Positions 6,291-64,000 of a DNA stretch of 64,000 nt are shown here, one piece after another. The first letter of the stretch is position 1; each line of letters begins with the position of its first letter. The translations under genes were made by a program, and so were the position numbers. The stretch is taken from positions 67,246 to 131,245 of the forward strand of contig CAIMNJ010000018.1 in assembly GCA_903842795.1 (NCBI GenBank), written 5' to 3'. The DNA comes from an uncultured bacterium (GTDB lineage Bacteria; Patescibacteriota; Microgenomatia; UBA1400; PJMF01). The notes under the pieces were generated by a model, which had not been told where the DNA came from, did no database searches, and worked only from the letters and a program-made list of their open reading frames with translations.

Positions 6291-8456
6291 TTATTTGTTT
6301 AGCTCCAATATGACTCTGTTTTGATCATTTGGCAAATTACGTAAAACATTAATCAAAAATGGAGGATTAAAAATTACCTGAGCTTGTCTGATTTCAGCAC
6401 TATTTTCTAAAGATTCCTCTGCACCAATCCACGGCTTACCTAGAATCTGAGGCTTCAGTGAATTCAAATCAATTTTGGCTACAGCTTTAGCACTAAGATC
6501 TGCTGTTAATTTAATTTTACTAGAATCAGAAGCAGCCTGAGCCTTATCACTCATCAAAGAAGGATCTTCATCCATAAAAACATAACCTGCTGGCAAATCT
6601 TTTTCCAATAAAGCCAAGCCTAAACTTTTTAGATCTTTAGAAAGATATTTTACTGCCTCAACATTGACCGTTAAGCTTAGAGTAATTGATTCTGTTTCAT
6701 CGCCAATCTTGGCAGAAAACTCACTCTTATTTACTTTAACCTTGCCAGTTGGCACTAAATAAACGCCATCTTTAGAATCAGTCTCATACTCTTTGGCCGC
6801 CTCTTGCGATAATTTCTTGGTTAAATTTTCCATCAAGCGATCTTGATCTATCTGCGCTACTACCCTAACTTCACGACTAGATCCTCCAGAAAAATTATCG
6901 GCAGAAATAGCAGAAAACTTATCTTCAAAATAATCAGCCACTCGAAACTTAGTGTCTTTGTTGAAATTAGCTTCAGAACCAATGTCTTTAGCAGTTACAT
7001 TGGTTTCAAATTTACCAAAATCCACCCCAGAACCATCTTGCTTAACAACTGAAGCTGGAACTTTAATTGTTTCATCCAATAAAAATTCAATGTCATTGGT
7101 GCTGACAATAGTTCCTTGTTTCAGCTCAACTTCTTGAGAAGTTTTATTGTAGATAATAACCCTACCCTTAGCTTTGTCTCCAACCAAACCAATTCCAGTG
7201 GTGGCCAAAACATCTTGACCAGAAATTTCCTTATTTTGAACAGAGGCCTTAAGCAGGGCTTCTTCGAAATCAGAAGTTTCTATATTTGGATCAAGAGTAA
7301 TGGTGACGTTCTTATGCAATAAAGTTTCTTCTGGAGTAATCACAATTCTCACTTTAGAAAAAAGAAGAGCAAAAGCAGTAAAGGCTAAAATTAGCGCCAA
7401 CAAGCCAGCTCCGAAACCCAAGAGAATCATTTTTTGATGGTAAAGATAAAATCTTCCAAAAGGAGAACGTTTTTTTGTTGGCTTAGCCACAGGAGCAGCA
7501 ATATCTTCTGAACTTACTTTATTATCAGACGACTCGTTATTATTCTTATGATAATTTTGATCGAACTTAATTCCAAAACTACTGGCACTTGGCTTCTCAA
7601 TAGCGTAATCATTTTCTTCAGAGGCTTCTTCTACTTTTTTAATATTGCTCACTAGTGGTTTTTGTTCGATTTGTTGATGAGGGGTAGTAGCAATAGGTTG
7701 TTTTTTAGGCATTTTAGCCAGCAAACTCTCTTTACTAAAGATTTTGCCAGCACTCAAGCTTACAGACTTAATCATATAATCAGCCTCCAAAGCAACAATA
7801 TCTGGAGCTTGAGTAAATCCAGGATTGGTAGTCCAATCTACTTTTGCCAATTGGCTATGCAAAGAATCTAATTCTTTCTTGGAAAGAGCAATTGACGTTA
7901 GAAGAATTTTACTTGGAAAATATTTACCATCATCTTGATCTAAGTGTTTAGCTGCTCTAGCCAAAATTTCAGAAAAATCAGCCACAACATCACCAGATCT
8001 GCCAACGGTAATCAAATCAATGAATTGACCATGTTTAAGAAAAACCAAATCAAAAATGTTTTCCTTAAAAATCATCAGTAAACAAGAATCATTTTCATCA
8101 CCAATCAACCTGGCTTCTGCTAAAGCCTCTGGAATACTAAACTGTCCAACAGCATCTAAACTTAGTTTTTCAGAAACATCCTTGATAACTGCTTTTTTAT
8201 CTGCACTAAGTTCACCATTTTCTAACCAGGTTTGATCAAAAGCAAAAACAGTTTCAGAAACCTCATTGGAATCTTCCCCCAATTGTTGCAAGCTTTTATC
8301 AAGCTGATCTGATAAGTCTTGGCGATCAAAATAATTGGCAATTTTGGAAAATTCTTGAATCTGCACTCCTTGACCATTATTGGAAACCAAGGAAGACTGC
8401 AAATATTTGTCGGTCAAAAGAATAGTAAGAAAGAAATGCTTATCCTGATCGGGCAT
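6291..8456 (-). CDS. Hypothetical bitopic membrane protein: ~340-aa cytoplasmic N-domain, one TM, ~350-aa extracytoplasmic C-domain
   Basis: 721-aa ORF with a single hydrophobic helix (ILLGFGAGLLALILAFTAFALLF) near residue 345. No recognisable catalytic motif. Its position next to the sortase, inserted between alaS and ruvX, is notable. Confidence 0.55.
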   Translation of the reverse strand: MPDQDKHFFLTILLTDKYLQSSLVSNNGQGVQIQEFSKIANYFDRQDLSDQLDKSLQQLGEDSNEVSETVFAFDQTWLENGELSADKKAVIKDVSEKLSLDAVGQFSIPEALAEARLIGDENDSCLLMIFKENIFDLVFLKHGQFIDLITVGRSGDVVADFSEILARAAKHLDQDDGKYFPSKILLTSIALSKKELDSLHSQLAKVDWTTNPGFTQAPDIVALEADYMIKSVSLSAGKIFSKESLLAKMPKKQPIATTPHQQIEQKPLVSNIKKVEEASEENDYAIEKPSASSFGIKFDQNYHKNNNESSDNKVSSEDIAAPVAKPTKKRSPFGRFYLYHQKMILLGFGAGLLALILAFTAFALLFSKVRIVITPEETLLHKNVTITLDPNIETSDFEEALLKASVQNKEISGQDVLATTGIGLVGDKAKGRVIIYNKTSQEVELKQGTIVSTNDIEFLLDETIKVPASVVKQDGSGVDFGKFETNVTAKDIGSEANFNKDTKFRVADYFEDKFSAISADNFSGGSSREVRVVAQIDQDRLMENLTKKLSQEAAKEYETDSKDGVYLVPTGKVKVNKSEFSAKIGDETESITLSLTVNVEAVKYLSKDLKSLGLALLEKDLPAGYVFMDEDPSLMSDKAQAASDSSKIKLTADLSAKAVAKIDLNSLKPQILGKPWIGAEESLENSAEIRQAQVIFNPPFLINVLRNLPNDQNRVILELNK

Positions 8457-57322: not shown

Positions 57323-58189
57323 TTAAAGTTCTTCAATTTTGATATTTGGCTGCATATCTGGAGTTTCAATCAAATGAAGATATTTTTCAGTGGTGGTAAT
57401 ACGTTTATGACCAACCAATTGTGATACATAGACCAAAGGAGTACCAGCTTTGAGTTGCTCAACCACAAAAGTATGGCGTAAATCGTTGACTTTGGCATCT
57501 TTGATGCCAGCCAAACGAAAATAGCGATCAATGGCGGTACGGATATTTCTGACCAAGAAAGGACGACAGGTTTTGGTCAAAAATAAAGTTTTCTCTTTGG
57601 CACGTGGACGCAATTTCAAGTAATCTAGAATAGATTTTTTGGCAGCAGCGTTCAAAGGAATACGACGAGCTTCACGAGAATTTTGAGCTTGAATATAAAT
57701 CAATTCTCTCTCAAGATCGATATCAGTTAATTGCAAATAAGCCAATTCACTAATTCTCATACCAGTCTGTAATAAAATTTCCACAATAGCGTGCATTCTG
57801 GCATCAGCGCGACAAGAATCACGCAAAGCGCGATACTCTAAACGAGACAAAATGCGTGGAGGAGTTTGGTCAAATTTTGGCTGAGTAATTTCTTCGGTCG
57901 GATTGATATCTACCAAACCTTCACTCACACAAAAGCGGAAGAAAGCTTTGATAGAATTAATTTTTCTTGAGATAGATTTACTAGTGTAACGCTGTTTCTT
58001 TAGTAATTCTTTAAAATCCTCAATATCTGGTGCACTAACCTCAGAGAGCAAGTTCTTAGATCTCTTACTCATAAAGTCAGCTAACTGCTCAATATCTTTG
58101 CTATAAGCAATTACAGTAGCGTGAGCCTTACCATTGGCTCTTAAGCTATCAGTAAACTTTGCTTGTGCATCAACTAGATTTGTGTGCAT
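57323..58189 (-). CDS. Tyrosine site-specific recombinase (XerC/XerD or integrase family)
   Basis: C-terminal catalytic region with R...HxxR...Y (LRHTFVVEQLKAGTPLVYVSQLVGHKRITTTEKYLHL) and an N-terminal SAM-like core-binding domain. 288 aa. Confidence 0.85.
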   Translation of the reverse strand: MHTNLVDAQAKFTDSLRANGKAHATVIAYSKDIEQLADFMSKRSKNLLSEVSAPDIEDFKELLKKQRYTSKSISRKINSIKAFFRFCVSEGLVDINPTEEITQPKFDQTPPRILSRLEYRALRDSCRADARMHAIVEILLQTGMRISELAYLQLTDIDLERELIYIQAQNSREARRIPLNAAAKKSILDYLKLRPRAKEKTLFLTKTCRPFLVRNIRTAIDRYFRLAGIKDAKVNDLRHTFVVEQLKAGTPLVYVSQLVGHKRITTTEKYLHLIETPDMQPNIKIEEL

Positions 58190-58743: not shown

Positions 58744-59898
58744 ATGTCACTTCCATTTGAAGCTCAAAGATTAAGTTTAAAAGAAGCACAAAAAGAAGCT
58801 GCTTCTTTGCAAGAAAAAGTTGGTGATCATGGAGAAACAGAAGATTATAAAGATGCTTACAGCGAATTAATAGCCGAACAAACAAAAGAGAAACTCGCTA
58901 ATAGCAACTGGGAAGAAACTTTAAGATTCAACGTTGCTGCAATTGATCGTAATGAAGATATGCTCAATCAAAGTAGCCGCACTAAGCGTGAGCTAACTGA
59001 GCAAAAGCGTCGCATTGAGGATCAAATAAGAAGATCAAGAAATTTAGAAGATAATCAAAAGTTGTTTGCCGAAGTTTTAGAAAAAATTGAAAAAGGAGCT
59101 AGTGAAGTTCCAGTTGGATTATATGATAGTGATCTTTATTTTGTTTTAATTGACATTGCTAAAAGTGCTAGCGACAAAGAACTAAAAAATTCTATCTGGC
59201 AAAAATTAAGCGACGCCTCATTCAATAATCGTGACACCAAAAATACTCAGATATCCGAAGTAACTCTCACACCAGAAGAAATTGACCTGCTAAAAAAAGC
59301 AATTCAAAAATCCAAAGAAAATTCTGTAGAAGAATTTGCCAGTCTTGGTAAATCTTTGAAAGAAAGTAGGGCTAAGTATGAAGAAGCTCACAGTATAAGT
59401 TTAGCTGAAGAGCAAGAGCTGATGGATCTACACGACATCACCATAGCTGCTATCGAGGTCTTGGATCAAAGAGAAGAAGAACAGGGAGCTCCTGCCTATC
59501 CAGATGAAACTGAAGCTGCAGAAAACAAACATAAAGCATATCTTAATAGAATTGATTGGAGAAAAAAACAATTAGATAAGATTGGTTATATGAAAGTTCC
59601 AAGAGGAAAAGAGATTAGTCGCAAATGGGCAATTTATGCAAAAATGGATGGCCATTACTTTTTATTAAATAAGGGTCATGAGTATGATGATGTACACCCA
59701 GTAGAAATTCTAACCTATCGCATTCCAGAAAGAACACCTGCTGTTTACGCTGAAGGCATGATGATGGCCCGTGGAGACGCTTCTTTGCAAGCAGTCATAA
59801 ATAACGGTATTTTGGAAAAACGCTCAGAATTAGATGTGAGAGAATATGAAAAAGATTTAAACGCTCATTTATTGGAATTAAAAATTCAAATTCGCTAG
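58744..59898 (+). CDS. Hypothetical protein (384 aa, helical and charged)
   Basis: Complete ORF followed by a strong terminator at 59915-59951. No motif recognised. Confidence 0.5.
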   Translation: MSLPFEAQRLSLKEAQKEAASLQEKVGDHGETEDYKDAYSELIAEQTKEKLANSNWEETLRFNVAAIDRNEDMLNQSSRTKRELTEQKRRIEDQIRRSRNLEDNQKLFAEVLEKIEKGASEVPVGLYDSDLYFVLIDIAKSASDKELKNSIWQKLSDASFNNRDTKNTQISEVTLTPEEIDLLKKAIQKSKENSVEEFASLGKSLKESRAKYEEAHSISLAEEQELMDLHDITIAAIEVLDQREEEQGAPAYPDETEAAENKHKAYLNRIDWRKKQLDKIGYMKVPRGKEISRKWAIYAKMDGHYFLLNKGHEYDDVHPVEILTYRIPERTPAVYAEGMMMARGDASLQAVINNGILEKRSELDVREYEKDLNAHLLELKIQIR

Positions 59899-60077: not shown

Positions 60078-60078
60078 G

Positions 60079-60147
60079 TTGCGGAACTAGGAGTCGAACC
60101 TAGCCTGTGGGATTATGAGCCCCACGTGCACCGTACACTATCCCGCG
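60079..60147 (-). tRNA. Initiator tRNA-fMet (anticodon CAU), compact 69-nt form
   Basis: The minus strand reads CGCGGGA-TA-GTG-TACGGTG-CAC-G-TGGGG-CTCATAA-TCCCA-CAGG-CTAGG-TTCGACT-CCTAG-TTCCGCA-A. It has the C1·A72 mismatch, three consecutive G·C pairs in the anticodon stem and a CTCATAA loop, all initiator hallmarks, with a reduced D-arm. No CCA is encoded. Confidence 0.8.
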
Positions 60148-60250: not shown

Positions 60251-60324
60251 GGCGGGATAGCTCAGCTGGTTAGAGCATCGGATTCATAAACCGAAGGTCC
60301 TGAGTTCGAATCTCAGTCCCGCTA
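60251..60324 (+). tRNA. tRNA-Met (CAU; elongator, or tRNA-Ile2 if lysidinylated)
   Basis: GGCGGGA-TA-GCTC-AGCTGGTTA-GAGC-A-TCGGA-TTCATAA-ACCGA-AGGTC-CTGAG-TTCGAAT-CTCAG-TCCCGCT-A, a 74-nt cloverleaf. The anticodon is CAT. Confidence 0.85.
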
Positions 60325-60329
60325 CTTTA

Positions 60330-62051: not shown

Positions 62052-62498
62052 TTATTTAATAATTGCTAAAATATCTTCAAATTTTAAAAATTGATACTCT
62101 ACGTCACCAATCTTAAACTCATTACCTCCCCATTTTTTATAAATAACCTTGTCGCCAACTTGAACTGAGGAACTCGAACAAGAGCAGGCTGAAGCACAGC
62201 AAGAACCTTTTTGTTCTTCTTCATCTTCATCGCAATCACAGCATCCTCCACCACAGCAACTATCACTGGCTTTTTCTTCTGAAGAGCAGCAGCCTTCTCC
62301 GCAACAATCATCATCTTCACAGCGATCATTGCATTCGCAATCTGCTTCACCAACAGCCAAAACAACACCATATTGAGGTTTTTCACTATCACTCTCTGAC
62401 AAAATAATGCCAGATTTAGTTTTTTCTTCTGACTTAGCTGGTTCAACTAAAACATAACCTTTGGTGGGTTGGATTTTTTTTATATCTAAATCTTTCAT
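62052..62498 (-). CDS. groS: Co-chaperonin GroES with a ~55-aa Cys/Asp/Glu-rich insertion (16 Cys)
   Basis: The GroES N-terminus (IQPTKGYVLVEPAKSEEKTKSGIIL) and C-terminus (VQVGDKVIYKKWGGNEFKIGDVEYQFLKFEDILAII) are conserved. In between lies ADCECNDRCEDDDCCGEGCCSSEEKASDSCCGGGCCDCDEDEEEQKGSCCASACSCSSSS. 148 aa versus the usual ~95. Confidence 0.9.
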   Translation of the reverse strand: MKDLDIKKIQPTKGYVLVEPAKSEEKTKSGIILSESDSEKPQYGVVLAVGEADCECNDRCEDDDCCGEGCCSSEEKASDSCCGGGCCDCDEDEEEQKGSCCASACSCSSSSVQVGDKVIYKKWGGNEFKIGDVEYQFLKFEDILAIIK

Positions 62499-62567
62499 AG
62501 ATTTTTCCCTTCTTTTATTTTTTTATAATTAAATCACGTGGCAAAAATTTATCACAAAAATCAATTA

Positions 62568-62594
62568 TTAGCAATACTTGTTATTGATTGCTAA
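62568..62594. promoter_or_regulatory. CIRCE operator upstream of groES-groEL (variant consensus)
   Basis: TTAGCAATA-CTTGTTATT-GATTGCTAA: 9-N9-9 with 8/9 arm complementarity. It sits ~70 nt upstream of the groES start and overlaps the stop of the upstream ORF. Confidence 0.8.
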
Positions 62595-62959
62595 CTAGAA
62601 AGACCATCAATTCCATAAAATAAGGCATTGATGAGAGAAATCGATTTGCGTAAGTCAGTGGCAAGCTGCATGGAAAGCTCAGCTGATTCTTGATCCAACT
62701 GCATTCCTTCCAAACTTAAATTAGAGTTGTCTACAAAAATTTTCATTAAAGATTCTATCGACGCCTTATTCTCACTAACAAAAAGATCTTGATCAGCTCT
62801 CTTTTTAAGCATAATCTTTTCTAAATAAGCAACAACCTGCTTCATTTCTCTACTGCGCAAAAAAAGATTAAATTTAATGTCAGCCTGATCTTCAATGGCT
62901 ATTGGATTTTGAAAATCTAAATTATCTAAAAGTTGATAACGCTTATTTGTTTTTGGCAT
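62591..62959 (-). CDS. Hypothetical protein (122 aa)
   Basis: Complete ORF with no recognisable motif. Confidence 0.4.
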   Translation of the reverse strand: MPKTNKRYQLLDNLDFQNPIAIEDQADIKFNLFLRSREMKQVVAYLEKIMLKKRADQDLFVSENKASIESLMKIFVDNSNLSLEGMQLDQESAELSMQLATDLRKSISLINALFYGIDGLSS

Positions 62960-62991
62960 TATAATATTGAGTTTGTATCTTACACATTTAT

Positions 62992-64000
62992 ATGAAAATT
63001 TTAAAGCTCAATTCTAATAGAGCGGAAATCATCAAGACAGTTGCTGCCTGCCTAAAAACAGACGGGCTAGTTATATATCCAACTGAAACTGTCTATGGTA
63101 TTGGTGCTTGTGCCACCAGCGCCAAAGCCATTGATAAACTACTGCAATACAAAGGTCGCCGGGAAGGCAAGCCTCTTTCAATTGCAGTAACAGATCAAAA
63201 AATGGCTGAAAAATATGTTGAGATAAATGAACAAGCTCTAAAATTTTATCAAAACTTTTTGCCTGGTCCATTTACCGTTGTTTCTAAATCAAAAAACCTA
63301 GTTGATAAAAGAGTTAATTCCGAATTCGGCACTCTGGGAATCAGAATCCCAGAATACCCATTAATCATTGATATTATCAAAGAATTTGGAGAAGCGATTA
63401 CTAGCACTTCAGCCAATGCTTCCGGCAAAAAAAGACCATACAAAATTCAAGATATCTTTGACAATTTATCTGATAAGCAAAAATCATTAGTTGATTTAGT
63501 AATTGATGCCGGAGAATTACCAAAAAATGAACCTTCAGTGGTGGTTGATACCACCCTATCTACTCCAATTGCTCTACGCGGATCACTACAAAAAAACCAA
63601 AAAGAAGCAGAAGTACTTTGGAGCAAGTCTCCAGTCGAAACTATTGAACTTGCTGGCAGATTAATGCTTAATCACTTAAATCAATTGCAAAAAAATGGTT
63701 TAGTTTTTGCTTTAAATGGTCAGCTTGGTATGGGTAAAACCATTTTTGCTAAAGGAATTGCAAAATTTTTATGCATAGAAGAAAACATTAATTCACCAAC
63801 TTATTCATATATAAATGAGTACAATTATAAAAGATTAGAAACCAGTGGTGTTTTTTATCATATTGATGCTTGGAAAATAGACAGCAAAGAAGAAACTGAA
63901 CTTTTGCAAATTGAAAAATTAGTGAAAAAAAATAACGTCTTAGTTATCGAATGGTTTGATCAAATTGAAAAATGGCTACAATTCGCAAAAGACACCAACA
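62992..64000 (+). CDS. Fusion of threonylcarbamoyl-AMP synthase (TsaC/YrdC domain) and t6A ATPase TsaE (YjeE); partial, runs off the window end
   Basis: ATG at 62992 gives MKILKLNSNRAEIIKTVAACLKTDGLVIYPTETVYGIGACATSAKAIDKLLQYKGRREGKPLSIAV..., the YrdC/Sua5 N-domain (VYGIG, KGR..KPL). In the same frame it continues to the TsaE P-loop ALNGQLGMGKTIFAKGIAKFL...PTYSYINEY with no stop before nt 64000. The ORF track omitted it because it is open-ended. Confidence 0.8.
   Translation, partial: MKILKLNSNRAEIIKTVAACLKTDGLVIYPTETVYGIGACATSAKAIDKLLQYKGRREGKPLSIAVTDQKMAEKYVEINEQALKFYQNFLPGPFTVVSKSKNLVDKRVNSEFGTLGIRIPEYPLIIDIIKEFGEAITSTSANASGKKRPYKIQDIFDNLSDKQKSLVDLVIDAGELPKNEPSVVVDTTLSTPIALRGSLQKNQKEAEVLWSKSPVETIELAGRLMLNHLNQLQKNGLVFALNGQLGMGKTIFAKGIAKFLCIEENINSPTYSYINEYNYKRLETSGVFYHIDAWKIDSKEETELLQIEKLVKKNNVLVIEWFDQIEKWLQFAKDTN

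Follow-up and report, generated by a model that had tools for sequence, protein, structure and literature searches.

A widespread TsaC–TsaE fusion encoded next to tsaD in Patescibacteria: an undescribed variant of the bacterial t6A machinery

Can a single bacterial polypeptide combine TsaC and TsaE, two proteins of the N6-threonylcarbamoyladenosine (t6A) pathway, and what would such a union mean for the delivery of threonylcarbamoyl-AMP (TC-AMP) to TsaD? The question is raised by the last gene of a 64,000-nucleotide stretch of DNA from an uncultured patescibacterium (contig CAIMNJ010000018.1), here called the window. An initial annotation, made from the sequence alone, described this gene as one open reading frame (ORF) joining a YrdC/Sua5-type TsaC domain to a TsaE (YjeE) domain. 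Sequence, motifs, fold and the tsaD context bear this description out, and its premise, that TsaC and TsaE are separate proteins in characterised bacteria, agrees with the t6A literature. The fusion is real, old and common in Patescibacteria, where it characterises one large branch. It is a widespread, hitherto undescribed form of the bacterial t6A machinery rather than a new kind of system.

The fused reading frame and its two domains

The frame opens with an ATG at 62992 and is free of stops for 336 codons up to base 64000, the last of the window, which, as had been recognised from the start, ends inside the TsaE domain. The remainder of the gene was read in two independently assembled metagenome contigs, L092 and L093, which were retrieved through an exact match to the 122-aa protein encoded next to the fusion. 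They match window positions 62248–64000 with 100% identity and reach 876 bp beyond. In both contigs the fusion protein has 358 aa, with 0 mismatches to the 336 aa encoded in the window, and ends at a TAA stop codon at window-equivalent 64066–64068. Extending the contig, as the initial annotation had proposed, thus adds 22 codons and the stop. The 358-aa frame is likewise intact in L001 and L002 (98.7% nucleotide identity; the same or a near-identical strain) and in two ENA contigs known from gene calls alone, and two further contigs, L090 and L091 (100% identical), end within the fusion gene after 282–284 uninterrupted codons. With the frame intact in all these assemblies, a sequencing frameshift is excluded. 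Neither a stop codon nor a frameshift separates the two domains in at least eight assemblies or in at least 130 diverged relatives. Separate translation of TsaE from an internal start was also considered and rejected: no ATG, GTG or TTG occurs in the linker or before aa 225, and the first possible internal start, M225, lies within the first TsaE helix and is not conserved. The gene and its parts are as follows.

62992–64000, plus strand: tsaC–tsaE fusion ORF (tsaCE), first 336 of 358 codons, stop outside the window; both domains score above curated cut-offs
63052–63579, plus strand: YrdC/TsaC domain, aa 21–196 (fold from aa 2), from PF01300, TIGR00057, alignments and Foldseek
63079–63099, plus strand: PTETVYG motif of the TsaC half
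63151–63159, plus strand: KxR motif of the TsaC half, K54-G-R56
63409–63417, plus strand: SxN motif of the TsaC half, S140-A-N142
63580–63627, plus strand: interdomain linker, aa 197–212, GSLQKNQKEAEVLWSK, disordered, variable in sequence and length, with no in-frame start codon
63628–64000, plus strand: TsaE (YjeE) P-loop ATPase domain, aa 213–336 of about 213–358, cut by the window end, from PF02367 and TIGR00150
63718–63741, plus strand: Walker A motif, GQLGMGKT
63793–63804, plus strand: SPTY motif
63859–63873, plus strand: HIDAW motif
63949–63954, plus strand: EW motif

The N-terminal half matches PF01300 (Sua5_yciO_yrdC; Pfam) at aa 21–196 with an E-value of 2.3e-45 (154.7 bits against a cut-off of 25.1) and passes the NCBIfam equivalog model for L-threonylcarbamoyladenylate synthase, TIGR00057 (168.9 bits against a cut-off of 123.2). 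It aligns over its full length with T. maritima TsaC2, MTH1692 and the Sua5 proteins of S. tokodaii and P. abyssi. YciO is a more distant relative (E 7e-17) than Sua5/TsaC2 (E 1e-25 to 1e-28). The residues K54-G-R56 and S140-A-N142 match KNR and SAN of S. tokodaii Sua5 (structures 2eqa and 9d3h were compared) and correspond to the KxR...SxN catalytic tetrad (PMC9654439). In an alignment of 18 diverged fusions, K54, S140, N142 and the PTETxYG motif are invariant and R56 is at least 90% conserved. AlphaFold2 gives this domain the twisted open-sheet α/β fold of YrdC, with a predicted local distance difference test (pLDDT) mostly above 85, and Foldseek aligns it with E. coli YrdC (1HRU) and YciO (1K7J) with target-normalised TM-scores of 0.79 and 0.80, respectively. 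No SUA5 domain follows past aa 196–197: alignments with Sua5 stop at residue 196, second-domain scores are negative, and the Pfam matches past aa 197 are to TsaE and other P-loop families. A Sua5-type linker motif was likewise not detected in the fusion. Since nothing past aa 196 matches SUA5, the N-terminal half is a TsaC core of a single domain, joined at its C-terminus to a partner other than SUA5. With its tetrad intact, it is predicted to make TC-AMP from threonine, bicarbonate and ATP.

The C-terminal half matches PF02367 (TsaE; Pfam) at aa 227–330 with an E-value of 1.5e-25 (90 bits against a cut-off of 26.6), and the TsaE equivalog model TIGR00150 (NCBIfam; cut-off 60.1) gives 82.5 bits for the window fragment and 85.5 bits for the full length. 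In the AlphaFold2 model, the TsaE fold begins with strand 1 and helix 1 at about aa 213, earlier than the Pfam envelope at 227, and the linker therefore spans only about aa 197–212. This half aligns with B. subtilis YdiB, H. influenzae HI0065 and T. maritima TsaE through Walker A, SPT(F/Y), YHxDxYR and IEW. The motif set tested comprised GxxGxGK(T/S), SPT(F/Y), HxDxY-R (Switch II, with the Walker B Asp) and E-W (Switch I), and G243, G246, G248, K249, T250, S268, P269, Y271, H290, D292, W294, E320 and W321 are invariant in the 18 fusions. Switch II reads YHIDAWK here against the usual YHxDxYR, and both substitutions, Tyr to Trp and Arg to Lys, are fixed across the whole fusion family. In E. coli YjeE, mutation of T43, Y82, E108 or W109 abolishes the ATPase activity stimulated by YgjD–YeaZ (PMC4330362); the equivalents in the fusion are T250, W294, E320 and W321. 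Foldseek aligns the TsaE half with HI0065 (1HTW; target-normalised TM-score 0.79), with chain B of 6S84 (0.74), which is the TsaE chain of the T. maritima TsaBDE complex, and with 5NP9 (0.72). All motifs being intact, this half is predicted to be a genuine TsaE ATPase.

Occurrence in Patescibacteria and linkage to tsaD

The search for other YrdC–YjeE fusions that the initial annotation had suggested returned many. In a collection of 5.8 billion proteins, both Pfam domains are present in 120 out of the 120 best clusters at 90% identity, whose members have 347–384 aa, except for one of 261 aa covering 78% of the query, and range in identity from 99% down to 56%. Scanned in full with HMMER, the 50%-identity representatives yielded 199 proteins at E ≤1e-30. 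Among the best 150 of them, as judged with hidden Markov models (HMMs) built from the two halves, 130 have both domains, always in the order TsaC then TsaE, with a median length of 361 aa and an identity to the query down to ~31%. The other 20 have the N-terminal domain only and are short fragments or standalone TsaC proteins of ~200 aa; TsaE-only proteins are absent from these 150 representatives. A GTDB scan, which is a sample rather than a census, contains at least nine fusion loci among the matches listed. Wherever relatives of the fusion or of its neighbours are named, they are Patescibacteria, namely, Pacebacteria GW2011_GWF2_38_9, Woesebacteria and 'Patescibacteria group'.

The fusion has been in plain sight in public databases. 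Members of the Pacebacteria cluster are available under NCBI accessions AKM81097.1 and KKQ09110.1, and the architecture is implicit in precomputed Pfam matches. These two accessions denote the fusion of Candidatus Pacebacteria bacterium GW2011_GWF2_38_9, which has a complete genome of 853 kb; its identity to the protein of the window is 78%. The public names, such as Sua5/YciO/YrdC/YwlC family protein, threonylcarbamoyl-AMP synthase or L-threonylcarbamoyladenylate synthase, refer to the TsaC half only and leave the TsaE half invisible; a survey of gene content would therefore record TsaE, wrongly, as missing from these Patescibacteria. No description of a natural TsaC–TsaE or YrdC–YjeE fusion was found in the open-access full-text literature. 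The sole 'TsaE-TsaC' string encountered there denotes an engineered gene array and was set aside.

Three records with fusions carry proteobacterial labels, L004 (DASPLQ010000012.1, 'Vitreimonas sp.') and L005 and L006 ('uncultured Pseudomonadales'). L004 and L006 share long-range synteny and 55–80% protein identity (GroEL, RNR, YidC, Band_7) with the patescibacterial loci, and L005 shares the fusion, at ~51% identity, together with the neighbouring 122-aa protein that is restricted to one clade. All three organism labels look wrong, and the 1.41-Mb contig L004 is probably a near-complete patescibacterial genome.

Immediately downstream of the fusion lies tsaD. Its start, at window-equivalent 64061 within ATGAGTAA, overlaps the end of the fusion gene by 8 nt (L092/L093). 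The encoded TsaD, just outside the window, has 377 aa, scores 321.8 bits with TIGR03723 against a cut-off of 296.1 (L001) and carries the HxxxH metal-binding motif as HIEAH. In 14 out of 14 further distinct fusion loci that extend downstream, tsaD is found on the same strand 3′ of the fusion, usually overlapping it or at a distance of ≤30 nt, with three exceptions of ~160–950 nt. In L007, L008, L010 and L012, whose fusions have diverged to 36–48% identity, the tsaCE–tsaD pair is the sole synteny left with the reference loci. Because the pair survives the loss of other synteny, the linkage is a specific one and does not result from frozen gene order. Together, tsaCE and tsaD are a two-gene unit with translational coupling. 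Their conserved adjacency also lends indirect support to a TsaE half whose ATPase would be activated by TsaB–TsaD and needed for multi-turnover t6A synthesis.

The initial annotation had asked whether tsaB and tsaD lie downstream, and the answer differs for the two genes: tsaD does, as the overlap and the 14 further loci attest, and tsaB was not found there. No TsaB-like ORF was detected with phmmer (TsaD as query) or with an HMM of the TsaD N-domain in the 64-kb window or within ±10 kb at 15 fusion loci; this search covered the window and the locus flanks, not whole genomes, and failure to find TsaB there is no evidence of its absence. The 64-kb window contains no second TsaC or TsaE homologue, and no standalone TsaE was seen beside tsaD in the fusion loci.

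The TsaD of the window's own lineage (L001, 2256–3389) has an insert of ~28 aa, roughly at aa 270–297, SPNLIKDEYPDRDFLKHLKKGNVPITEINE. The insert is lineage-specific and is missing in more distant fusion loci, whose alignments split at this point.

Other Patescibacteria arrange their t6A genes differently. Southlakia epibionticum, the only genetically studied patescibacterium, has tsaD–tsaC and tsaE–tsaB pairs (SEML1_0047/0048 and SEML1_0713/0714); its TsaB, of 130 aa, consists of the N-domain only and is encoded beside tsaE, far from tsaD–tsaC, its TsaE is annotated as hypothetical, and all four t6A genes scored as non-essential in transposon sequencing (PMC10633639 supplement). In the Saccharibacteria-labelled locus L080, a standalone tsaE encoding 159 aa is directly followed by tsaD. 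At least three t6A gene arrangements are thus present in Patescibacteria.

Possible consequences of the fusion

The joint between the two halves differs in character from the halves themselves. The AlphaFold2 model, computed from an 18-sequence alignment, has a mean pLDDT of 83.8 and consists of two confident domains, with a predicted TM-score (pTM) of 0.54 for the whole chain and a pLDDT below 50 at aa 190–205. Mean pairwise identity is 0.66 in the TsaC domain and 0.56 in the TsaE core against 0.40 in the linker. The invariant R196 and T217, which bracket the linker and the first TsaE strand, are 17–28 residues apart in the 18 homologues, and the gap between the domain envelopes is mostly 11–29 residues in the 130 two-domain representatives. 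Given the invariant catalytic residues and these identities, both halves are under purifying selection and the joint is not, and the disordered linker together with the low pTM implies that there is no fixed interdomain interface. No PDB chain containing both domains was found. The best whole-chain Foldseek matches are two-domain Sua5/TsaC2 structures, with a root-mean-square deviation of 14–16 Å, which means that only the N-domain truly superposes on them.

Among known systems, standalone TsaC (E. coli YrdC, 1HRU/2MX1) and TsaE (YjeE; HI0065, 1HTW; T. maritima, 6S84/6N9A) have the same folds, catalytic motifs and pathway as the fusion, and a genomic association of tsaE with tsaD is common to both arrangements. 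However, the standalone proteins are separate and no stable complex of TsaC with TsaBDE has been isolated, whereas the fusion is one polypeptide with a flexible linker. Sua5/TsaC2 (S. tokodaii 2EQA, P. abyssi 6F87, T. maritima 9D3H) likewise comprises a YrdC domain, a linker and a C-terminal α/β domain, but there the linker carries a motif and the C-terminal domain is SUA5, whereas the fusion has a TsaE P-loop ATPase and lacks the Sua5 linker motif. In TobZ and HypF (YrdC-like plus Kae1/TsaD-like) and in Pandoravirus TsaN (TsaD–TsaC–SUA5–TcdA), a YrdC module is similarly fused to its partner in a two-step carbamoylation. That partner is a transferase, and in TobZ and HypF a tunnel joins the two sites, whereas here the partner is an accessory ATPase; unlike in TobZ and HypF, TsaD is a separate ORF and no fixed interdomain interface is predicted. 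The archaeal Kae1–Bud32 proteins (MJ1130, HVO_1895), a classic Rosetta-stone link, also attach a t6A accessory ATPase to a catalytic subunit, but in them Bud32 is joined to the transferase Kae1, whereas in the present fusion the unrelated bacterial ATPase TsaE is joined to the TC-AMP synthase. Fusions between pathway partners are common. Those described for t6A subunits, namely, TsaB–RimI–TsaD, hydrolase–TsaB and Alr–TsaE, reported in the SyntTax survey (PMC3571937), and TsaC–HemK of Mycoplasma genitalium, do not include TsaC–TsaE. According to the same survey, a direct interaction of YrdC with the YgjD complex was not known and clusters of all four genes are rare (PMC3571937).

Two questions about t6A synthesis are open, the route of TC-AMP from TsaC to TsaD and the role of TsaE, which is essential and chemically unnecessary (PMC6009658, PMC11648230). 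TC-AMP is short-lived (PMC6009658, PMC4330362). TsaE–ATP binds the TsaB–TsaD interface and opens and disorders the active site of TsaD (PMC6009658), TsaE and tRNA compete for TsaDB (PMC11648230), and ATP hydrolysis frees TsaE and resets TsaD for the next turnover (PMC11648230, PMC9654439). In the model proposed by Missoury et al. (2018), TsaE 'prepares' TsaD for its encounter with TsaC, the transfer of TC-AMP takes place with TsaE still bound, and hydrolysis of ATP then frees the tRNA site; the authors noted that no stable complex of all four proteins could be obtained (PMC6009658). Because this complex is too transient to isolate, the model of the TsaE-bound state has never been directly tested. 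A covalent TsaC–TsaE chain is the evolutionary shortcut that the scheme would predict.

In our estimate there is an even chance that the fusion is, as its motifs predict, a bifunctional t6A chain whose flexible tether couples TC-AMP synthesis to TsaD by proximity. The TsaC half would make labile TC-AMP from threonine, bicarbonate and ATP, and between turnovers, when no tRNA is bound, the ATP-bound TsaE half would dock on TsaD and its partner, TsaB or an equivalent. The two halves being one chain, each docking of TsaE would bring the TsaC active site within linker reach, a few tens of ångströms, of the TsaD site. TC-AMP would then be loaded at high local concentration while TsaE keeps TsaD open, and ATP hydrolysis would release the whole TsaC–TsaE chain, freeing the tRNA site. 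Coupling of this kind would operate through a flexible tether and would involve no pre-formed tunnel like that of TobZ or HypF. Translational coupling would tie the synthesis of TsaC and TsaE to that of TsaD. Appendages at the ends joined here appear to be tolerated, since Sua5 bears a natural C-terminal domain after its YrdC domain. Moreover, E. coli TsaC with a C-terminal tag and T. maritima TsaE with an N-terminal tag served as recombinant proteins in published reconstitutions and structures (PMC6009658, PMC4330362).

The initial annotation held that the fusion implies substrate channelling or an altered stoichiometry. A TsaC:TsaE ratio fixed at 1:1 does follow from the two halves being one chain. 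Channelling does not follow, given the disordered linker, the pTM of 0.54 and the lack of a tunnel; it stands as a hypothesis, now backed by a concrete published model. In TobZ, the TsaD-like module contacts its TsaC-like partner through the face opposite the TsaE site (PMC6009658). With this geometry and a tether of 16 residues, a TobZ-like tunnel is unlikely, and proximity, or action in trans within a TsaD dimer or tetramer, is the likelier basis of any coupling.

Several observations weigh against coupling through the tether. The length of the linker is not conserved, ranging from 8 to ~100 residues in the 130 representatives, and the AlphaFold model lacks a defined TsaC/TsaE interface and so offers no structural argument for channelling. 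A TobZ-like hand-over in cis would strain the ~16-residue linker or need the second TsaD of a tetramer. In known systems, TsaB forms half of the docking site of TsaE, yet none was found in the window or within 10 kb of any fusion locus. Finally, other Patescibacteria, such as Southlakia and the organism of L080, cope with separate genes.

The main rival explanation is a neutral or streamlining fusion, in which the stop codon between tsaC and tsaE was lost in a tsaC–tsaE–tsaD operon of a small genome. Each half would then behave just as its standalone counterpart does, and the product would confer equimolar co-expression only, with no kinetic coupling and no hand-over of TC-AMP. We give it an appreciable, though less than even, chance of being correct. 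A linker that is disordered and variable in both sequence and length, and a model with a pTM of 0.54 and no interface, fit such a fusion equally well as coupling by a tether. Moreover, related Patescibacteria have the genes unfused and in other pairings, and operon neighbours fuse readily, as TsaB–RimI–TsaD and Alr–TsaE illustrate (PMC3571937). On the other hand, the fusion has been retained in one order over at least 130 clusters at 50% identity, down to ~31% identity, and the tsaCE–tsaD pair outlasts a complete loss of nearby synteny, although both observations are compatible with neutrality.

It is improbable that TsaE acts in cis on TsaC, replacing the SUA5 domain of TsaC2/Sua5 and gating the TsaC site with ATP instead of serving TsaD. 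The fusion does resemble Sua5 in its order of YrdC domain, flexible linker and C-terminal α/β domain, its YrdC half is closest in sequence to the N-domains of TsaC2/Sua5, and two-domain Sua5/TsaC2 structures are its top whole-chain Foldseek matches. However, at 14–16 Å over the whole chain it is the N-domain alone that superposes, neither a Sua5-type linker motif nor a SUA5 domain was detected, and all motifs of a genuine TsaE are kept, including the equivalents of E. coli T43, Y82 (W294), E108 and W109. Furthermore, since no standalone TsaE is seen next to tsaD in the fusion loci, the fused TsaE domain must serve TsaD.

Even less probable is that one half is degenerate, either as an ATPase-dead, TsaE-like docking domain or as a YciO-like paralogue, with the real enzyme encoded elsewhere. 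The window shows 64 kb of the genome, so that standalone copies are possible elsewhere, and Switch II has W-K in place of the usual Y-R. Yet both halves pass their equivalog models, the catalytic residues are all invariant, the TsaC half is nearer to Sua5/TsaC2 than to YciO by the E-values given above, and the Tyr-to-Trp and Arg-to-Lys substitutions are conservative and fixed across the family. An artefact, that is, adjacent genes merged by a sequencing or assembly error, can be dismissed with near certainty, as independently assembled contigs of the one strain agree on the frame and hundreds of diverged homologues share it.

Returning to a bifunctional chain coupled to TsaD by its tether, a bolder version can be put forward only tentatively and is rather doubtful: a rewired t6A machine in which TC-AMP synthesis is built into the ATPase cycle of TsaE, so that TsaE delivers TsaC, TC-AMP is loaded without equilibrating with the bulk, and hydrolysis ejects both, maybe with a reduced or missing TsaB. 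If this were true, nature would have supplied, in stable form, the otherwise transient TsaC–TsaBDE encounter complex, and the purpose of TsaE would be settled. More generally, this deeply conserved fusion, translationally coupled to tsaD, provides independent comparative-genomic support for the model in which the TsaE-bound state is the one that meets TsaC. For t6A specialists, the fusion offers a Rosetta-stone argument and, combined with TsaD, a possible reagent for trapping the TsaC–TsaD encounter complex for cryo-electron microscopy, and a comparison of fused and split versions would cleanly test the hand-over of TC-AMP.

Neighbouring genes

The window is a housekeeping stretch with a low GC content of ~37%, containing rpoB, alaS, ftsK, pnp, dnaK, ftsH and groESL. 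In relatives with ≥50% identity the gene order around the fusion is kept as groEL–groES–(...)–[gene for a 110–122-aa protein, minus strand], followed by tsaCE–tsaD–[gene for a ~600-aa membrane protein]–smpB. The neighbouring features are listed below.

62960–62991, no strand: divergent intergenic spacer of 32 bp between the 122-aa protein gene (minus strand) and tsaCE, presumed promoter/start region
62591–62959, minus strand: gene for the 122-aa protein, divergent, 32 bp from the tsaCE start, no Pfam match
Beyond the window end, after tsaD: conserved gene for a protein of ~600–627 aa (L003, 12232–14031; L084, 12164–14020; L086, 12253–14136)
62052–62498, minus strand: GroES gene, 148 aa against the usual ~100
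58744–59898, plus strand: 384-aa ORF, Glu/Lys-rich, no Pfam match at E ≤1e-5
31708–33843 and 6291–8456, both minus strand: large ORFs of 711 and 721 aa, no Pfam match at E ≤1e-5

Two promoter-like matches, at 62933–62962 and 62953–81, overlap the spacer upstream of tsaCE. The scan for promoters and terminators around the fusion start gave chance-level results, with 8 matches against 6.9 ± 2.8 expected in the whole region.

The 122-aa protein has only 53 relatives, all in a Pacebacteria-like clade. Its gene is found directly upstream of the fusion at ≥50% identity and is absent from more distant fusion loci. AlphaFold2 predicts a plain bundle of three helices and a disordered N-terminus, and the model has no significant PDB match. 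We considered this protein as a substitute for TsaB or Pcc1 and rejected it on the grounds of this fold, the lack of Pfam and PDB matches, its restriction to one clade and its absence from distant loci. The ~600-aa protein encoded after tsaD, whose gene overlaps tsaD by 32 nt in L086, has no Pfam match and consists of a cytoplasmic N-terminal domain, one central transmembrane helix and a likely β-rich C-terminal half. It was rejected as a candidate TsaB, as it is not a protein of the ASKHA (acetate and sugar kinase/Hsc70/actin) superfamily.

In the GroES of the window, the Cpn10 match is split in two by a ~55-aa insert, CECNDRCEDDDCCGEGCCSSEEKASDSCCGGGCCDCDEDEEEQKGSCCASACSCSSSS, that is composed almost wholly of Cys, Asp, Glu, Gly and Ser and may be metal-binding. 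GroES proteins of the relatives L084, L086 and L088 have an ordinary length of 101–106 aa. Several independent assemblies break in or beside this gene: L092 and L093 start at 62248, and ENA contigs end inside it.

The stretch from an integrase-like gene (57323–58189) to groEL, which holds the 384-aa ORF, varies in content among relatives (L003 versus L086). Between this ORF and groEL lie two tRNA-Met(CAU) genes, at 60078–60147 (minus strand) and 60251–60325 (plus strand), ~100 nt apart, one of which has only 70 nt, with the anticodon at position 31.

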